Of a DNA stretch of 64,000 nucleotides, positions 22,334-29,802 are shown piece after piece. The stretch is from Candidatus Latescibacterota bacterium (GTDB lineage: Bacteria; Latescibacterota; UBA2968; UBA8231). The notes under the pieces are model-generated. The model worked only from the letters and a program-made list of their open reading frames with translations, had not been told where the DNA came from and did not search any database. The position numbers and the translations under genes are program-made. Each line of letters starts with the position of its first letter. Position 1 is the first letter of the stretch. The stretch spans positions 3,232,001 through 3,296,000 of the forward strand of contig OZ241362.1 of NCBI GenBank assembly GCA_965200315.1, written 5' to 3'.

Positions 22334-22629
22334 CCGATTTCTCTATTGCGGCTCTTGCCGCGTTGTGCTCTCACCGACTTGGCCCCGCCGGTGGCTGGTG
22401 GTCCGTACGTGCGTCCTTGGGAGGGCCGCCCGCGCACCGAGCCAGGTGCCGCATTTCACGAGTGATGTAGGATTGCTATATAAGAACCTGACCGCTCGTT
22501 GCGATTGCGACTATGCCACCAAGAAACGTACCTTCATTTCGTATAAATAACATCTAGTGGCCGCTATCCGAATTAATTATTCGGATATAAGCAGTTGACT
22601 GAAAGCAGCAAAAAAGAAAAGGACTCAGA

Positions 22630-23395
22630 ATGAGTTATCCCGCAATGGACCAACCGGCCCCCGCGATCGAGGTCAGTGAATGGATTAGCGGGAAGCCAGA
22701 AAAGGAAAATGGACTTTCTGGAAACAATGTGATCCTTGAGTTCTGGGGCACTCATTGTGGCCCGTGTATTGCCGCCATTCCCCATCTCAATGAACTTGTC
22801 GCCACGTATGGCAGTAAGGACACCCTTTTTGTCTCGTTGACCCGTGAAGAGCCCCACACCATAGAACGCTTCTTGAAAAAAAGGCCGATAAAGGGCGGAG
22901 TCGCCACAGATCGAGAAGGTACAACGTTCAATGCCTATGGGATACAAAGTATCCCTCATACCTTTCTCATAGACTCACAAGGGCTACTTCGTTGGCGCGG
23001 CCATCCACATTTTTTTACTGCGGAATTGTTAGAGGAGTTTCTCCAGACGGACAACGTGCCCAAAATAGACGAATCAACCACCTCTTCAGAAACCGTGCCG
23101 ACGGTCACTCCAGACACCCTGTTTTTTTTAAAAATTGATCGAAATGCGTCCGATCGCAGAGAGGCCAGTTTGATGGGCGACGAGCAATTCGAATCAGCTT
23201 ACCGATTACCTTGAGAGTTCGATGAAGTGCATATTCTTTAACGAAACACACTTGGCAGGGAAATATGACTTTATATTGCCGGTTGAAACCTTTGATCAGA
23301 CACGGCGAGCTTTAGAAGAAGAGTATGGTATCAAAGTCGAATCGGCGGTACGCGAAGTAGAAATAGTGATTCTGCGCATGACGGGTGCGCGGTGA
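22630..23395 (+). pseudogene. TlpA-like redoxin with C-terminal TIGR03435-like domain, broken by frameshift or internal deletion near 23190
   Basis: EFWGTHCGPC; another frame continues QLTDYLES...NETHLAGKYDFIL...LEEEYGIKVE...VEIVIL to TGA 23395. Confidence 0.65.
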
Positions 23396-23429
23396 CTCGC
23401 CGTGCCTTACTTCATAACCGTTAGAACTC

Positions 23430-24089
23430 ATGTCAATCGATTTTGATTTTGGCGGAGCCGTCCCCCCGTGGGGCCGTAGCGCAGCTGAATACGAGGCGTT
23501 CTTCGCGTTATCTGACGTCCCGCCATCTGCGCACATATTGGACTGCGGGGGTGGACCGTCATCATTCGCTGCGGAATGGAGTAGAAATGGACGATATGTC
23601 GTCGCCGCTGACCCCAGATATAGGTTTTCCGCCAAAAATTTTCTAGCCGACTTCGATCTCACAGCGGCACGGATGCTCGTGGGAATGCAGAAGGCGCAGG
23701 ACAGGTTCAAGTGGGATTATTACGGCAGCCCGGAAGATGTCGTCCAACGCCGGCGCGACGTCCTCACAGCCTTCACTTCCGATTTTCAGGCCGCGACTCG
23801 GAGTGGTCGCTACGTATCTGCCTGCCTACCGGAATTGCCTTTTCTATCGGAATCCTTCGATCTCGTACTTTGTTCTCATCTGCTATTTCTCTACTCTGCC
23901 GAATTCGACACAGAAACCCACCTCTCCTTCCTGCGAGAAATGCTTCGCGTAGGTCGAGAGGTTCGCGTATTTCCATTGCTCGACATGGATGGTAAACCTT
24001 CCGAACATCTGGAGGACACCCTTCAGACACTGCGAATGTCAACACACCTTGAGGCCCTCAACGGGGTAGTGACTCATTTTGAAATTTGA
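23430..24089 (+). CDS. SAM-dependent methyltransferase, C-terminally truncated and reading into the IS end
   Basis: ILDCGGGPSSF, FDLVLCSHLLFLYS, EVRVFPL; last residues are encoded by the TSD/IR. Confidence 0.75.
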   Translation: MSIDFDFGGAVPPWGRSAAEYEAFFALSDVPPSAHILDCGGGPSSFAAEWSRNGRYVVAADPRYRFSAKNFLADFDLTAARMLVGMQKAQDRFKWDYYGSPEDVVQRRRDVLTAFTSDFQAATRSGRYVSACLPELPFLSESFDLVLCSHLLFLYSAEFDTETHLSFLREMLRVGREVRVFPLLDMDGKPSEHLEDTLQTLRMSTHLEALNGVVTHFEI

Positions 24090-24871
24090 TGCTTCTTGTA
24101 CGTCTTGGGGCGGTTCGGCTTAGGTCGGGCCGCCTGGATCTGTTCGGCCAACCATTCCATATCATAGCCAGTGTCGGCCAATCCTGCCGCTTGTGCCGGC
24201 GTTTTGCCTATCGAAGAGTGAACCCGCACGAAGTTGTAGTAAACGAAGTAGAGCGAAAGCATGTTCAAGTGACGTTCTATCCGCTTGCTAAACCCGTTGG
24301 TGCGCCGAGTGAAGCGTCGCATTCCCATTCGCATCGTTAGATTTTGCCGCTCGACGTGAGAGGTGGTAGGTCCTCCTTCTTCCCCTTTCGTCATCAATGC
24401 GTGTTCCACATCCTCACCGAAGACCTGCTCTACTGCCGAGAGATAGACGTTGTAGCGATCCGTTGTTAGATGTACTGGATTGGCCAAGCGTTCTTGTAGA
24501 TTCTCCAAAAATTCAAGTCCGGTTTCCATAGAACGGTCCCCGACCTCGTAGGCCAAGATCAACTTGGTGTCTGAATCAATCGCTGTCCACGTCCATACAT
24601 CGCCTGCCCCGTCAGGAGCATCCGGTGCTTGGTTGACCGTCTTTTGCTTGGCATAGCAGAACGACCAAATTTCGTCGCATTGAACTCGACGGACTACGAC
24701 ATTACGTACGTATTGGTCATGGTACGTCGCACAGAACTGGCCCGCATCGACCAGCATCTTATAGACAGTGTTTAGGGATACAGGAATTATCCGGCTGATG
24801 GACCGCATAGACGATCCTTCAACCAGCATAGAAAGGATAAGGATTCGCTTATTTAGGGCTAATCTGTTCAC
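24074..24871 (-). CDS. IS1-family DDE transposase
   Basis: N-terminal HTH; QCDEIWSF, WTWTAID, TTD, HVERQNLTMRM..RRFTR...FSK; stop codon lies inside the IR. Confidence 0.92.
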   Translation of the reverse strand: MNRLALNKRILILSMLVEGSSMRSISRIIPVSLNTVYKMLVDAGQFCATYHDQYVRNVVVRRVQCDEIWSFCYAKQKTVNQAPDAPDGAGDVWTWTAIDSDTKLILAYEVGDRSMETGLEFLENLQERLANPVHLTTDRYNVYLSAVEQVFGEDVEHALMTKGEEGGPTTSHVERQNLTMRMGMRRFTRRTNGFSKRIERHLNMLSLYFVYYNFVRVHSSIGKTPAQAAGLADTGYDMEWLAEQIQAARPKPNRPKTYKKHQISK

Positions 24872-24935
24872 GCCCTAAATATAAGTAAAAACAGCTATTT
24901 ACTCAATAGCGTTTTGTTTTGTTCAGTTTGAAAAA

Positions 24936-24963
24936 ATGCCTCGACCATAAAAGGCCGAGGCAT
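24936..24963. terminator. Hairpin, likely terminator
   Basis: atgcctcg...cgaggcat stem next to an A/T run, downstream of the passenger genes. Confidence 0.5.
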
Positions 24964-24987
24964 GTGTTTGTTGCACTTCTTTTTTCG

Positions 24988-25134
24988 TTACGAAGTTTTT
25001 TCTTTAAGGAATCGTCGCAATTTATTGTCAGTTTCGTTGGAGATTTTTTTCTGAGAGTAGTTCGGTTTTGGGTATAAAATGTTTATACCCTTTTTCCGTA
25101 ACTTAGCTAAATCTATATCAGAATTCTTATTCAT
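24988..25134 (-). CDS. Small basic protein (48 aa) coupled to the protease gene
   Basis: ATG overlaps the protease stop (ATGAATAA); MNKNSDIDLAKLRKKG...KEKTS. Confidence 0.45.
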   Translation of the reverse strand: MNKNSDIDLAKLRKKGINILYPKPNYSQKKISNETDNKLRRFLKEKTS

Positions 25135-26122
25135 TTTTACGTTCTTCATGTTCAGGCTCCTTTTCAATGGGTTGTGTTTTTTCATTCTTGGGCTGAGTGT
25201 TTTCATTTTTGGGTTGCGTATCTTCTTCTTCGATTTCTGCGTCTTCTTCTTCGGGGAGAAGTGTTCCAATACACCGATAGTTTTCTGTTTGGGACAGTTG
25301 ATCGAAGAATTCGTCGAGTAAAACCTGGGTTTTTTCATTGGCTATTGATACGTTTAAGCCTATTTGGCGAGCTTCGACTGCATCTATGAAAAAACCGTGA
25401 TCGGGGTAGTCCCAAACGAGCTTTTGGGAGATCGAATCTTTATTGTCTTCATATGATGCGTTCAGGATTTTAGCACAGTATCGCTCCATTACCTCTAAGG
25501 CACGTCCGCTGTTGCCTAGCTCAAAGGGGCTAACATTCGAGTAAATACGACCAATGGTCGCCTCAACTAGTTCCTTAGCTTCCTGGACAGCATGTCTCGG
25601 TGAAATTCCTCTCTCCTTCAGAAAGTTGACGAATATGTCAAGGTATTCAGTAACTTCTTTCTGTGCGAACCGAAGAGCATGGAAGCTCTCCAGAGCGCTT
25701 TCGGGAGAACTGAAATAGTGTCGGTCTGAACTAGAGGTACTAGATGGGCTTGGTATCTGTGGATCAAGAGGACCTAATTCAGCCCATTGGCCCATTATTA
25801 TCTTTGACGCCCCTAAAGCGAAAAGAGTTGCTCCACTTTTAGCAAACTTTGGAACAATGGCTACATAGTCAGGACAGTATGTTTGAAAAATATAAGGGGT
25901 CCTAAAAGACGCTTCCAGATCGCCTCCAGGACTATGAATAATAACGTCAATTTTTCCTATGTTTGGTATCACCCTTTTGAAAAGCTCAACCATCTTGACG
26001 GTTCTGAATGTGATTTCACTGCACAGAAAGAAAGGATGTCGGTCTCGAAGGGCGATCCAATTGTGCGTCCATTCGTCAAGAGGTCCTGTCTCAGTAAAGA
26101 GCAACTCATCGCTATATTTCAT
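25127..26122 (-). CDS. SDH_sah / ClpP-fold serine protease with acidic repeat tail
   Basis: IIHSPGG, PKFAKSGATL, LGPLDPQ, YPDHG; tail has TQPKNE(N/K) repeats. Confidence 0.85.
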   Translation of the reverse strand: MKYSDELLFTETGPLDEWTHNWIALRDRHPFFLCSEITFRTVKMVELFKRVIPNIGKIDVIIHSPGGDLEASFRTPYIFQTYCPDYVAIVPKFAKSGATLFALGASKIIMGQWAELGPLDPQIPSPSSTSSSDRHYFSSPESALESFHALRFAQKEVTEYLDIFVNFLKERGISPRHAVQEAKELVEATIGRIYSNVSPFELGNSGRALEVMERYCAKILNASYEDNKDSISQKLVWDYPDHGFFIDAVEARQIGLNVSIANEKTQVLLDEFFDQLSQTENYRCIGTLLPEEEDAEIEEEDTQPKNENTQPKNEKTQPIEKEPEHEERKNE

Positions 26123-26176
26123 CAGATAGCCGTGTTTTATGTGTGAAATGTACAGTAATCTTCAAGAACTAGTTGG

Positions 26177-26356
26177 CTAGCTCTTGTCGGTCTTCTCCAG
26201 CTTGAAGTACGGGGCAGCCTTTTTGTAAAGACGTTTAAGCGTGGAGAGCGTTTTGGCTGGAGGATCTGTTTCCTCGCCAGTAGCGATTTTAGCCACTTGT
26301 ACCGCGCAGCCTACTGCGTCGGCGGGACGACGCTGGCCTTGGGGGCCTTTAGGCAT
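26177..26356 (-). CDS. Small protein of the MPKGPxGxxRPAD type
   Basis: MPKGPQGQRRPADAVGCAVQVAKIATGE; ATG 26356 after AGGA. Confidence 0.65.
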   Translation of the reverse strand: MPKGPQGQRRPADAVGCAVQVAKIATGEETDPPAKTLSTLKRLYKKAAPYFKLEKTDKS

Positions 26357-26762
26357 GAAGGTCCTACTTTTCGTTGTTTGTGTGTTGCCAACCACCCATA
26401 GCTGCTAATTTGTGCAGGTTCACGTAATTACTATAAATATAAGTATATAGTAGAAATACGCGAGTGCGCGCAAAAGCTGAACGGCAAAGGCGATATTGTC
26501 AAGGGCCTTTTTCCCAGAATCTTGTCTAAAGCGGCTATTTTTTCTTATTTTTCAGGCGATCCAACGTTTTTGCAGATCCCGCTTACCGGGTCATCTGCTG
26601 AATAGAATAGCCAGACCCGGCGAAGGGTAGCTCCCTTCTGCCTTGGCGAATAGGTAGAGCGTACGATGCAGATGGACACTCACTGCACCTACTGCAAAGA
26701 CGTTGGACGGGCCCGGCCCCTTCGGGGGCCTTTCCTGTCCCTCCCGTCCAAGGAGATACGTC

Positions 26763-27119
26763 ATGCCTCGTCTTGCAGTGCTTGCAGGAGGTCTGTTTTT
26801 TGTCCTCTCCTGTTCTCGTAGTCAAGCTCCACTAGCCCCCCAAGAAGTTTCGACTGATTCAGGACCAGCCATACGGTTGTCGTACGTGGCCAAGCCTATG
26901 ACCAACGGTACGCGCTGCATGTACGACCGCCCCGGACTGCTCTATTGGTCTTCTCAAGGACTGACAGCGACCGTGCTGTCAAAAGGGCAATGGGTGTACC
27001 ACACCTATACTTGGGATTACATCGGGATTGAGTCATCCGCAGGCGAAGTTCTCTACGGTATCAATAACGGTCGGCTGATTTTTCCTGGTGATCTCCGTGC
27101 CATTTGGACGCCTCAATAG
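26763..27119 (+). CDS. Putative lipoprotein, unknown function
   Basis: AAGGAG RBS at 26750; signal MPRLAVLAGGLFFVLSC with lipobox. Confidence 0.65.
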   Translation: MPRLAVLAGGLFFVLSCSRSQAPLAPQEVSTDSGPAIRLSYVAKPMTNGTRCMYDRPGLLYWSSQGLTATVLSKGQWVYHTYTWDYIGIESSAGEVLYGINNGRLIFPGDLRAIWTPQ

Positions 27120-27297
27120 GCAAGTGAAGGGTAGGTCGCCAGATGGAACGGACGTAGGTTGAAGGCGAGAGACGATAACCTGCGGCGCGACCTACCCTTC
27201 TAAAAGATTCCTTGCAAGCTCCGACTTAGTTAGGCTATTTATGCTTGGCTGAGTCGGAGCTTTTTGTTTTCCAAAATTTCAAAATGAGTCACTACCC

Positions 27298-29802
27298 TCA
27301 ACGGGGGCGCAGGATGGTGCCGCCCCGCCGAGACACGTCGAAGGAAAGCTCCCGGTCGCCAGCACGCAGCCGGAACAAATCGCCCTCTTGAGCGACCCGG
27401 GCCTTGGCCGAGCGGCTGCAAAAGGCGAGGACGAGGACATCGTCGTTCGTACCCGCCACCAGCCGCGTCGCCTCAGCGGCACCCGGGAGAAAGCTGACGA
27501 GGCTACCGGCGGCCAGTCCAGAAGGCGCAAAGGGCACCTCTTCGGCCCGCAGTTGGAGGCCCTGGCCAAACACCGGCATTACCTCTACCACACGCCGTCC
27601 AGCACCAAGACGGGCGCGACTCCTGCTCAGACCTTGCAGGTCCACCGGATTCAGCTTGTAGGCCAGCTCACCACCACCCATCTCCGGTCCCAAGCCGCTA
27701 GCCGGATCCACGGTCAGCCGCCGACGGCCCGGACAGCGGAGGTCAATAAAGGCCAAATCGCAGTCCGCGGAGACGCCGGGCGTTTGCACGGCACCGCCAA
27801 AGGCGAGGGTAGAGTGGGGCCACACATAGAAGGTGCGCGGTTCCTGCCGCGAGGCGAGTCCCTGCGAGTCGTGGCCCACCTCGCCGAAGGTGGCCGGATC
27901 GTCGATACGTTTCGCCTCGCCATCGACAGCAATCTCCATCCACGGCCTACCCGCACGTCGGTTGAAGCCACCCCACCCAATCTCGACCTCGTGCCAAACT
28001 CCAGAATCCACCCCGCTCGGTGCCCGCACCGCTACCTCGTGGCCGTTCTGGCTCTGCACGCTGAAGCACAGCTTGCCGTCCGCTGCGGCGATGAGGGCGA
28101 AGGTGTTAACTCCTGTCCCACCGGCCCCGCCGACGCCGTTTCCCGTGTTGAACAACACCCGAGGACCGTCCTCGCACCCCCGCAAGCGGAAATGCAAGCG
28201 CAGGCGGCCGCCGTTGGCGCAGAACCAAGGCCGGGCCTCGTACTGCAAGGCGTCGCCTTCGCTCAGCCGGACGATGTCATCGACGAAGCGGAGGCCGCGC
28301 GGCCGACGCCGCAGCGCCACAAGTACAACCGGGTGCTCTCCGGTCAACAGCCAGTACTCGTGCTCGGTGCGCCGGGCGGAGACGCGCAGCCGCTGCCATT
28401 GCCTCGTGTGCTCCAGACCGCCTAACACGGCGACGATCTCGTTCTGGCCACCCACGCAAGGCAGGCTGCCGCAACTCACCGGCTGGGCCTCGGCCGCACT
28501 GATCGCACGCAGCACGGGATTCCCCGCCCACTGCACGTGCAAGTTCATAAAGCCGTGGGCCACATCGCCATCGTACCCGCTGACCGAGAGGATCGCCGCA
28601 TCGGGTCCATGGCCGCTGCGCATCACGGCAGAGCGGCCGCCGCGCCCCGCAAAACGCCGCGCCAGCGGAGCCGGGTGGCGCTGCTTGGCCGCCCGGAAGT
28701 CGGGATCGTAAAAGCAGTAGGCGTAAGGCCCGTAGGAGATCATGCACTCCGCTGTTGAGCCTTTAACGCCGCCACCGAAGCGGTAGATCCGGCCTAGGCG
28801 CGGGTCGGCTATGGCGGCGTCGCGCAGCACCTCGTCGCCAGCCTCTTGGGCCAGCCTCAGGAGCGCGGGAGAGCAAGCGTTGAGTTGGGTGCCGAGCACG
28901 TTGGCGTTGGCGGGATAGTAGAGTTGGTCGGGAATTTTGCGCGGTGCGGCCCAATGGGCGCGGAACCAAGTCAGCGGCCGCCGCAGCCGGGCCGGAACCT
29001 CGCGGCCGAGATCAATGCCCGTGACATTGCGCAGCGCGTCGGCAAACTGCAGGAGCCAGAGGTTTTCCCAAGGCCAGAAGGAAGGGCCGTCCACCGGCTC
29101 GCCAGCGGGGCCGCAGCCGTGGGGAAGGATGGCGGCGCGGAAGCGCTCGAGGACCGCCTGTACCCATACCTCCGCCTTGGGGTGTTCGCCCAGCAGATGC
29201 AGAGCAGCCACTCCAAAGTGCCCGTTGTCCACGACGGCGTGGTGCCCACCTTCCTCCGAGTGGCGTTGCTCGTCCACATCCGGCCACCAGCGCTCCAACT
29301 GCCGCACGAGACAGGCGCGGGTCTGACGCTTCTCGTCAACTGGCAACTCTCCGTCCAACAGGTCGAGAGCCAAGGCAAAGGCCTGCATGTAGCGGTTGGC
29401 CGTGTAGAAGTGCTCCTCCACCCGGTCGTCGTGGTCCCAACCAGCGGCCGCCCGCAGCCAAGCGCGAGCCCGGTCGAGCCAGCACCGATCGCCGGTCAAC
29501 CGCCAAGCAAAGGCGTAGTTCTCGATCAAGGCCGTAGCCTGCATGGCCGTGTAGAAGGTCAAATAAAGCTGGTGGTACGGGTGAGGGCTGTCCGGCCGTC
29601 GCGGAATTCGCGGCCACGGCCGCTGTCCGGCATACAGATCACAGTCGGCTAGGAGGTTGGCGAGGATGCGCCGACGCACGGAATCGGCTGGCGGATCAAA
29701 GCGGAAGTGGGGATCGTCGAAGGGCCTCAGCAGCCGGGGCCGCTCGCGGCGGATGACCCGGATCGATGCCTGTTTCGGCGAGTTGGACGAATGCACAGGC
29801 AT
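27298..29802 (-). CDS. Heparinase II/III / DUF4962-like polysaccharide lyase with possible LamG-like domain
   Basis: Helical toroid-like N-terminus (AFAWRLTGD, HHAVV, GPSFW), beta-rich C-terminus (WHEVEIGW). Confidence 0.6.
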   Translation of the reverse strand: MPVHSSNSPKQASIRVIRRERPRLLRPFDDPHFRFDPPADSVRRRILANLLADCDLYAGQRPWPRIPRRPDSPHPYHQLYLTFYTAMQATALIENYAFAWRLTGDRCWLDRARAWLRAAAGWDHDDRVEEHFYTANRYMQAFALALDLLDGELPVDEKRQTRACLVRQLERWWPDVDEQRHSEEGGHHAVVDNGHFGVAALHLLGEHPKAEVWVQAVLERFRAAILPHGCGPAGEPVDGPSFWPWENLWLLQFADALRNVTGIDLGREVPARLRRPLTWFRAHWAAPRKIPDQLYYPANANVLGTQLNACSPALLRLAQEAGDEVLRDAAIADPRLGRIYRFGGGVKGSTAECMISYGPYAYCFYDPDFRAAKQRHPAPLARRFAGRGGRSAVMRSGHGPDAAILSVSGYDGDVAHGFMNLHVQWAGNPVLRAISAAEAQPVSCGSLPCVGGQNEIVAVLGGLEHTRQWQRLRVSARRTEHEYWLLTGEHPVVLVALRRRPRGLRFVDDIVRLSEGDALQYEARPWFCANGGRLRLHFRLRGCEDGPRVLFNTGNGVGGAGGTGVNTFALIAAADGKLCFSVQSQNGHEVAVRAPSGVDSGVWHEVEIGWGGFNRRAGRPWMEIAVDGEAKRIDDPATFGEVGHDSQGLASRQEPRTFYVWPHSTLAFGGAVQTPGVSADCDLAFIDLRCPGRRRLTVDPASGLGPEMGGGELAYKLNPVDLQGLSRSRARLGAGRRVVEVMPVFGQGLQLRAEEVPFAPSGLAAGSLVSFLPGAAEATRLVAGTNDDVLVLAFCSRSAKARVAQEGDLFRLRAGDRELSFDVSRRGGTILRPR

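Follow-up and report, generated by a model that had tools for sequence, protein, structure and literature searches.

A divergent IS1-family element carrying passenger genes and a conserved structured RNA in a Candidatus Latescibacterota genome

The window analysed here is a stretch of 64,000 nucleotides from a Candidatus Latescibacterota bacterium (assembly GCA_965200315.1, contig OZ241362.1, positions 3,232,001 to 3,296,000). It contains a unit of 3,232 bp that ends in a pair of inverted repeats (IRs), is flanked by an 8-bp direct repeat, has 47% G+C in a genome of about 65%, and occurs as a single copy in that genome (Table 1). In the direction of the transposase gene the order is: the far IR; a cassette on the opposite strand made up of a structured RNA, a lipoprotein gene and a terminator; a promoter region and a small core open reading frame (ORF); a predicted SDH-type protease gene; a terminator; the transposase gene with its own promoter region; and the near IR. 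Very probably this stretch is an IS1-family transposon that is autonomous and has moved in recent times, one of the transporter insertion sequences (IS), whose passenger genes move as one unit.

Table 1. Features of the element and its borders (positions are those of the window)
Feature	Position	Strand	Basis or remark
Target-site duplication, left copy CTCAACGG	24057..24064	.	Identical 8 bp at 27297-27304
Terminal IR near transposase 3' end	24065..24087	+	100% complementary to 27274-27296
Single-ORF IS1-family DDE transposase, 265 aa, GTG start	24074..24871	-	Pfam PF03400; stop inside IR
Promoter-like site upstream of transposase	24878..24906	-	TTGAGT-17-TATATT, consensus match only
Terminator-like hairpin and T-run between protease operon and transposase	24936..24963	-	11-bp stem, 7 GC pairs, TTTTTT tail
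48-aa basic ORF, unsupported	24988..25134	-	Out of frame with, and overlapping, the end of the protease gene
Cargo: predicted ClpP-like SDH-type serine protease, 331 aa	25127..26122	-	Pfam PF01972, E 3.7e-17
Core small ORF (MPKGPQGQRRPADAVG...), 58 aa	26177..26353	-	Homologues in 66/70 elements by BLAST clustering
Small-ORF upstream region, common to G022 sister element	26354..26530	-	Window 26265-26530 92.5% identical to L027 7405-7671
Cargo: conserved structured RNA, core 26571-26659	26545..26745	+	Own model R1, 78.6 bits; sRNA-Xcc1-like
Cargo: probable lipoprotein, 118 aa (MPRLAVLAGGLFFVLSC...)	26763..27119	+	ORF; no Pfam/NCBIfam match
Further hairpin after lipoprotein gene	27126-27200	+	Inverted-repeat search
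Terminator-like hairpin after lipoprotein gene	27216..27262	+	Inverted-repeat and terminator search
Terminal IR, far end	27274..27296	-	Complementarity to 24065-24087
Target-site duplication, right copy CTCAACGG	27297..27304	.	Holds stop codon of 834-aa neighbour

The perfectly complementary arms span 24 nt (24064-24087 and 27274-27297) and are read as a 23-bp IR, GGTAGTGACTCATTTTGAAATTT; the homologous target site is present as one copy in relatives. The initial annotation had deduced a recent insertion from perfect 23-bp IRs starting GGT, an 8-bp target-site duplication and an uninterrupted DDE transposase. The arms, the direct repeat and the 265-aa ORF bear out these features and fix the identity and boundaries of the element, and the insertion itself agrees with an empty site found both in related genomes and in a metagenome population. 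One transposase gene, one IR pair and no second IS copy lie within the unit, which is thus not a composite transposon. The duplication around the whole unit, the empty allele and contigs that run from IR to IR place it with the transporter IS. In the proposed mechanism, the single-ORF DDE transposase would recognize the 23-bp ends (GGTAGTGACTC...), and the whole 3,232-bp unit would have been inserted through an 8-bp staggered cut.

Does the unit move as a whole? Among the genomes of the genus, 21 of 31 have the right flank and 17 of 31 the left flank, and in all five relatives that were aligned the methyltransferase-like and 834-aa genes are adjacent and the element is absent. The TGA stop of the 834-aa gene (27298-27300, minus strand) sits inside the duplicated 8 bp, so this gene is intact. 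An insertion on the stop codon of a lyase gene without disruption had been proposed: the stop codon is indeed within the duplication and the gene is unharmed, but the lyase label corresponds only to sub-threshold Pfam matches (DUF4962, E 0.0011). On the left, the neighbouring 219-aa methyltransferase-like ORF has its present end within the IR.

Contigs of four public runs of another study (DNA and RNA libraries) were then compared with the window. In both DNA runs a contig with near-identical flanks joins 24053 to 27295 with 95 other letters in between, which is the empty allele; in one of these runs the contig is 15,246 nt long and has a depth of 46.3. The same DNA runs contain the element as a contig of its own (3,231-3,232 nt) whose ends fall exactly at the IRs, at depths of 55.4 and 232.7 against 46.3 and about 140-155 for the flanks. 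All four runs assembled the element as one IR-to-IR contig, and in one DNA run the depths of the occupied junctions (94, 97) and the empty junction (54.6) sum to approximately the flank depth. These contigs establish that the 3.2 kb is mobile as a unit. Other neighbours of the element's terminal 30 nt also occur among the run contigs, at least three on the left and at least four on the right. Natural populations are polymorphic for the element, which is therefore open to study as an active system. The ratio of element to flank depth was 3.6-4.6x in the RNA libraries (using both flanks in one run and the right flank alone in the other, where the left flank is on the element's contig) against 1.2-1.7x in the DNA libraries, a weak hint of transcription.

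The left border has a peculiarity. In the occupied allele (window 24040-24064) the methyltransferase gene lacks about 85-95 bp of 3' end that are present in the empty allele and in 5/5 relatives, and short TGAGG-like repeats flank this gap. Neither an occupied allele with the 95 bp nor an empty allele without them turned up among the five relatives and the metagenome contigs.

The transposase matches Pfam family PF03400 (DDE_Tnp_IS1) with 41.1 bits (E 2.8e-10; cut-off 24.1). When an alignment of eight relatives was compared by hhalign with InsB of E. coli IS1A, the match had a probability of 96.6%, an E value of 5.1e-10 and 30% identity over 118 columns, and it spanned the DDE motifs; D66, D138 and E174 are invariant among the 8 transposase relatives. 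RefSeq plasmid records name the relatives' enzyme 'IS1 family transposase'. IRs of the IS1 family are about 20-25 bp long and start GGT..TG (consensus GGnnnTG in ISfinder), and its target duplications are 8-9 bp long, 9 bp being usual for IS1 itself. Here the first 11 IR bases, which begin GGTAGTG at both ends, equal the IS1A end at 10 of 11. Classical IS1 has two genes, insA and insB', joined by a -1 frameshift, and InsA has a zinc finger. The N-terminus of the present enzyme contains a helix-turn-helix-like stretch, and a Cys-rich (zinc-finger) motif was not found there. The length (3,232 bp against 768 bp for IS1A) and the passengers also lie outside the classical IS1 group.

Because of the Pfam match, the InsB profile match and the likeness of the IR ends, we place the element, by sequence, within the IS1 family as a divergent member with a single ORF. 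The absence of a frameshift and of a zinc finger, and a length four times as great, set it apart from classical IS1. It shares with IS1A of E. coli a homologous DDE core, including DE.W, TDG and ERxNL..R....R...FSK, as well as IRs of about 23 bp and a short target duplication. The ends of IS1A begin GGTAATGACTC whereas those here begin GGTAGTGACTC; and, unlike the 768-bp IS1A, the present element (3.2 kb) has a single ORF without a frameshift or an InsA-type zinc finger, and an extra conserved small gene and passenger genes; every element seen here has an 8-bp duplication. (ISfinder lists an IS1 subgroup, ISMhu11, whose members reach 4.6 kb; the name was not found in a literature search.)

Of 61 related genomes, 19 had a match to the transposase query. 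These matching genomes and the window's own yielded seven more elements between repeats, 1.7-4.5 kb long; six have perfect 8-bp duplications, which makes 7 of 8 genus elements when the present one is included. A wider scan with a transposase profile, using one genome per species, gave at least 601 candidate stretches; 594 of these 601 encode a relative, and the best 80 were analysed. These come mostly from Alphaproteobacteria, but also from Acidobacteriota, Dehalococcoidia, Nitrospirales and others. An IR pair with an 8-bp duplication (at most one mismatch) was found in 64 of the best 80 loci. Two pairs (L081, L090) had no GGTAGTG-type ends and were excluded as spurious, leaving 62 bounded elements with GG-initial IRs, 58 with perfect duplications and 4 with one mismatch. 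They span 2,066-7,568 bp (median 3,231); none is shorter than 2 kb and none is bare. The initial annotation had proposed a cargo-shuttling IS1 lineage with a variable slot. Such a lineage is what was found, since 62 of the best 80 loci are bounded, and the genes between small ORF and transposase vary from element to element. A scan with the 23-bp IR, which had been suggested as a check, located the exact repeat on 29 metagenome contigs, but none of them has the cargo of this element.

Among these contigs there are seven MITE-like (miniature inverted-repeat transposable element) pairs of the exact 23-nt repeat, 87-462 bp apart, three of the seven with a perfect 8-bp duplication; they come from soil-type metagenomes (contigs L193, L194, L203, L204, L208, L209, L214). 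The exact-IR contigs also hold two larger IR-bounded units, as well as distant transposases at 33-47% identity. One contig, L218, has a 2.2-kb IR-bounded unit with the small ORF and without a transposase.

The small ORF is found in all 62 bounded elements, 61 times on the transposase strand and once inverted, and in all 8 genus elements. Its motif lies at most 600 bp from the far IR in 55 of the 61 same-strand elements, and the gap between it and the transposase is at least 500 bp in 60 of 61 (median 1,381 bp). The four elements that fall outside the BLAST cluster of small ORFs carry divergent forms, of the type KRPRD.N.LA..IV. Because it is kept in all bounded elements, the small ORF is a core gene and not cargo, and this establishes the division of the element into core and cargo. 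The small protein has no Pfam match; its profile found no relative among solved structures (there was a chance match alone, at E 0.28); and it falls in Atlas clusters without Pfam families, the largest of which has 2,739 members. A complex prediction for the small protein with the transposase (score 0.01) has no bearing either way; the small protein's own fold was uncertain. This protein may help or regulate transposition or the maintenance of the element. Its C-terminal motif, GG.ARA..L(S/T)PE.R.EIA.KAA..RW, is also seen at the N-terminus of P63C-domain cargo proteins (L052, L064, L107) and matches the start of phage family phrog_2384 (E 6.6e-5); it seems to be a short module that these proteins have in common.

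Cargo occurs in at least three slots. The common case is the region between the small ORF and the transposase; a second slot is downstream of the transposase, where 25 of 62 elements have more than 200 bp; and a third, used by the elements of the window, G006, G012 and others, separates the far IR from the small ORF. A Pfam match (E <=1e-5) was obtained for 53 of the 134 cargo ORFs of at least 120 aa, and 81 had none; many of these 81 are probably spurious frames in G+C-rich DNA. The annotated cargo comprises Peptidase_M78 with or without a helix-turn-helix domain (15 elements), nSTAND1/AAA NTPases (6), P63C (4), NYN (3), Fic, PemK/MazF, DNA methylase-HNH fusions and DUF433, once with PIN (2 each), and SocA/Panacea, an AbiEii-like ATPase, ClpP and the SDH protease (1 each); nested IS of other families are present in 3 elements. 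The slot DNA, so far as its cargo is annotated by Pfam, is rich in toxin-antitoxin and defence-type domains. Genes for defence or addiction had been suggested for the slot at the outset, and the lineage as a whole fits this, but the element's own cargo has no PADLOC match.

Two relatives of the present element illustrate how the cargo changes. In the closest element, the sister in genome G022, the transposase is 93% identical, and the DNA is 92% identical over 24065-24934 (the transposase end) and over 26265-26530, which takes in the region upstream of the small ORF and the 5' half of that ORF. The DNA on either side of 26265-26530 differs between the window and G022; that between the two conserved blocks does not align, and encodes a protease of the same family with just 28% identity. 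The G022 element is without the lipoprotein cassette and its far IR is degenerate. The element in G012, on the other hand, has a transposase that is only 50% identical but an RNA-lipoprotein cassette that is 90% identical and has the same position and orientation. Homologues of the protease are patchily distributed in the class (25/121 genomes; best identity 37%), and 13 of them elsewhere in the class have no transposase, IR or small ORF within 1.5 kb. Because of the divergence of the G022 protease, the identity of the G012 cassette and the protease homologues that stand free of any element, we conclude that cargo modules are captured and exchanged, which establishes cargo turnover in the lineage. 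The lineage keeps its ends, the small ORF and the transposase alone. All other parts are exchangeable and are swapped as modules, the most likely route being recombination of related elements with one another at the conserved arms. The cargo may be kept because it benefits the element or the host in conflicts, as addiction or defence genes would. The G022 element (L027 9710-10341) adjoins a small AbrB/MazE-like ORF and a 133-aa ORF that, judged by eye, resembles a Doc/Fic-type toxin.

The protease of the present element matches PF01972 over residues 50-189 with 62.7 bits (gathering score 31.3). Its core is thus above the Pfam cut-off for the SDH-type ClpP-like proteinases, but far below the cut-off of the NCBIfam Clp_like_SDH equivalog (70.2 bits against 250). 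Its only full-length matches are to phage families of unassigned function, among them phrog_21683 (E 1.6e-27), and nothing besides such families was matched by the C-terminal half and acidic tail. No relative was found by sequence among solved structures, and the available portions of the literature on the SDH-type family gave no description of function. GC3, the G+C content at third codon positions, is 0.40 in the protease gene and 0.78 in the neighbouring host gene. PADLOC-DB 2.0 assigned no family to any of 6 proteins, both proteases included.

These results change the list of cargo genes given in the initial annotation. The ClpP-fold protease stays on it, as a predicted ClpP-like protease of the SDH type (Pfam PF01972), and the MPKGP-type small protein moves to the core of the lineage. 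The 48-aa basic peptide is unsupported: its ORF overlaps the end of the protease gene, the enclosing 116-aa ORF has no Pfam or PADLOC match, and there is no counterpart in G022. The hairpin-rich spacers do have hairpins, but they are made up of two terminator-like hairpins and a conserved structured RNA.

This RNA is the least expected part of the element. Its core is conserved in the five first copies that were recognized, and nhmmer finds 7 copies in the window's genome; the six others are at G000:C1 2152921-2153107, 3507219-3507386, 2364799-2364918, 5181916-5182075, 1807369-1807542 and 4521820-4521921. The 26-nt box pattern has 31 matches in 10 of 41 family genomes (reversed control, 0), and a covariance model has matches in 64 of 121 genomes of the class. 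The conserved core, CUGCUGAAUA.AAUAGCC ... GGCGAAUAGGYAGA, is enclosed by a long variable outer helix. Since sequence-only alignments (A3, A4) left the outer arms out of register, cognate and non-cognate duplexes were compared. The arms proved to be complementary copy by copy: the duplexes averaged -34.2 kcal/mol when cognate and -19.8 when non-cognate, and in 25 of 26 the cognate partner was the best. RNAalifold gave an inner helix with C-G to U-A exchanges. In an alignment of 47 distinct copies, fitted to the model, 95.6% of cells were paired versus 87.1% in shuffles (0/500 shuffles reached this value), with double changes at 10 of 14 pairs; slid controls paired at 32-56%.

With Rfam, neither the window's copy nor a genome-wide search gave a match up to E 10, and the element gave only chance-level matches. 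A sister copy, L144, aligns end to end with sRNA-Xcc1 (RF02221) at 27.9 bits (threshold 53). The likeness consists of a closing stem GCCGGG/CCCGGC, the inner helix, an internal loop AAUACAA.A / GAAU and a second hairpin. As described in the accessible text of bioRxiv 10.1101/2025.06.18.660453, sRNA-Xcc1 occurs in integron cassettes, upstream of symE in Xanthomonas. Both RNAs are thus found on mobile elements (integron cassettes, transposons and plasmids for sRNA-Xcc1) upstream of a small gene; but the RNA described here is below the Rfam threshold, belongs to a different host class, has an extra hairpin of about 35 nt in place of a 3-nt loop, and has the additional long variable outer helix.

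The lipoprotein has a paralogue elsewhere in the genome (78% identical), and the RNA may control or accompany the lipoprotein gene. The genes downstream of the RNA copies are diverse. A crude and noisy ORF-plus-lipobox script flagged 9 of 43 as lipoprotein-like; loosely stated, many encode exported or membrane proteins, lipoproteins and small membrane proteins among them. A CGGG sequence in the RNA can pair alternatively with three CCCG boxes, and these alternative pairings suggest, from the sequence, a possible RNA switch.

Several of the results count against the interpretation of the unit as a mobile IS1-family carrier of conflict genes. The transposase scores 87.6 bits with the NCBIfam IS1 model NF033558, under the curated cut-off of 100, and the want of an insA/insB' frameshift and of a zinc-finger motif separates it from classical IS1. 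In the survey, 16 of the best 80 loci had no pair of IRs with a duplication (some owing to contig ends), besides the 2 spurious pairs. The MITE-like elements with an identical IR in soil metagenomes are a possible source of the foreign junctions, as are other family members with the same ends, the short junction contigs having just 30 nt in common with the element. Contig depths are means, which cannot count copies; the contigs show presence. DNA carry-over could account for the depth in the RNA libraries. Finally, no defence or toxin-antitoxin family in Pfam, NCBIfam or PADLOC matches the element's own cargo, and the addiction or defence reading is borrowed from its relatives.

What else could the unit be? 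That it is not one transposon at all, but an ordinary IS beside an older low-GC island, with the far repeat a solo IR or the end of a decayed second copy, is most improbable. The two decayed relatives in the genome would suit this idea, as would the fact that low G+C begins at about 22400, well to the left of the element; but that low-GC left flank is conserved in place in relatives without the element, the empty allele removes exactly the stretch from IR to IR, and the same stretch is a single contig in four runs and has the 8-bp duplication around the whole of it. We also consider it quite unlikely that the MPKGP ORF belongs to the cargo and encodes a small nucleic-acid-binding protein that is widespread, happens to be common and plays no part in transposition. 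It would be odd for a passenger to be present in 62/62 surveyed and 8/8 genus elements, on the transposase strand in 61/62 and with its motif no more than 600 bp away from the far IR in 55/61, and to be kept where all other cargo differs. That said, the protein has no family and no solved relative, the GG-K-ARA...RW motif recurs at the N-terminus of P63C cargo and in phage phrog_2384, and an Atlas cluster of 2,739 members suggests a common protein.

The reading of a transposon with a fixed core leaves the question of whether the cargo matters to it. The cargo could be a neutral hitch-hiker trapped by chance, for example when an inner end is lost between neighbouring copies, and the slot a zone where insertions are tolerated. 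Such an origin would fit three observations: no defence or toxin family is matched by the protease or the lipoprotein, Pfam recognizes nothing in 81 of the 134 cargo ORFs, and three elements have nested IS of other families in the same region. Still, this seems unlikely to us: not one of the 62 elements is without cargo, the part of the cargo that Pfam annotates leans strongly towards toxin-antitoxin, nuclease and NTPase modules, and modules that are 90% identical have been exchanged between elements whose transposases are 50% identical.

IS elements with passenger genes, the transporter IS (tIS), are an established kind, as the accessible parts of two papers set out (PMC3129680; PMC7986276), and the IS6 family has a single tIS member (same parts of PMC7986276). 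These tIS likewise have one transposase, one IR pair and passengers that are unrelated to transposition and move as a unit. As there presented, however, tIS are occasional members of a family, whereas here every bounded member carries cargo and one fixed accessory gene. No description was found in open papers of an IS1 clade in which one small accessory gene is fixed and the content of a slot varies, and the part of PMC7986276 available does not describe this IS1 lineage.

A more far-reaching view, which we put forward tentatively and as one joint claim, is that the clade could be a dedicated gene shuttle and not an IS that occasionally picks up genes. The small protein would then be a required partner or regulator of the IS1-type transposase; the conserved arms, which are the transposase gene and the small gene's 5' half, would be landing pads where elements of different phyla exchange conflict modules by recombination; the expanded sRNA-Xcc1-type RNA and the small lipoprotein would form a regulated cassette, toxin-like or immunity-like, of a hitherto undescribed type; and the RNA family would have spread through the whole bacterial class. 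IS1 is the textbook example of a minimal insertion sequence. The clade delimited here is a large and phylogenetically broad group of IS1 relatives (at least 594 loci) whose bounded members always have a fixed small gene and a changing load, and it blurs the border between IS and transposons. One transposase with 23-bp ends would be a simple vehicle for spreading conflict genes within and between genomes, and the structured RNA, which is outside Rfam and occurs in 64/121 genomes of the class, is a testable candidate regulator tied to exported proteins and mobile DNA.

Some minor features remain to be described. The hairpin at 24936-24963 divides the unit formed by the small ORF and the protease gene from the transposase gene. 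Promoter-like sites in the element region are not more numerous than in shuffles. ARAGORN detected no tRNA-like gene in the element or in its relatives; a single hit, a tRNA-Thr in L034, falls outside the bounded element there, and ATA codons do not occupy fixed positions in the 8 transposase genes. To the left of the element, the stretch 22400-24064, with thioredoxin/AhpC-like and methyltransferase-like genes, has 45-57% G+C in the genome of about 65% and keeps its place in 16 of 30 genus relatives; it has the look of an island acquired earlier and separate from the element. Of the two decayed relatives in the window's own genome, the first measures 1,689 bp, has an 8-bp duplication and encodes a broken transposase. 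The second (L011 3250-7436; G000:C1 2022249-2026435) has a transposase without the first 47 residues, fused in frame behind a fragment with a cytosine-methylase-like motif; this is followed by a 1,002-aa secreted-type protein and then by the terminal repeat, so that here the cargo is downstream of the transposase.

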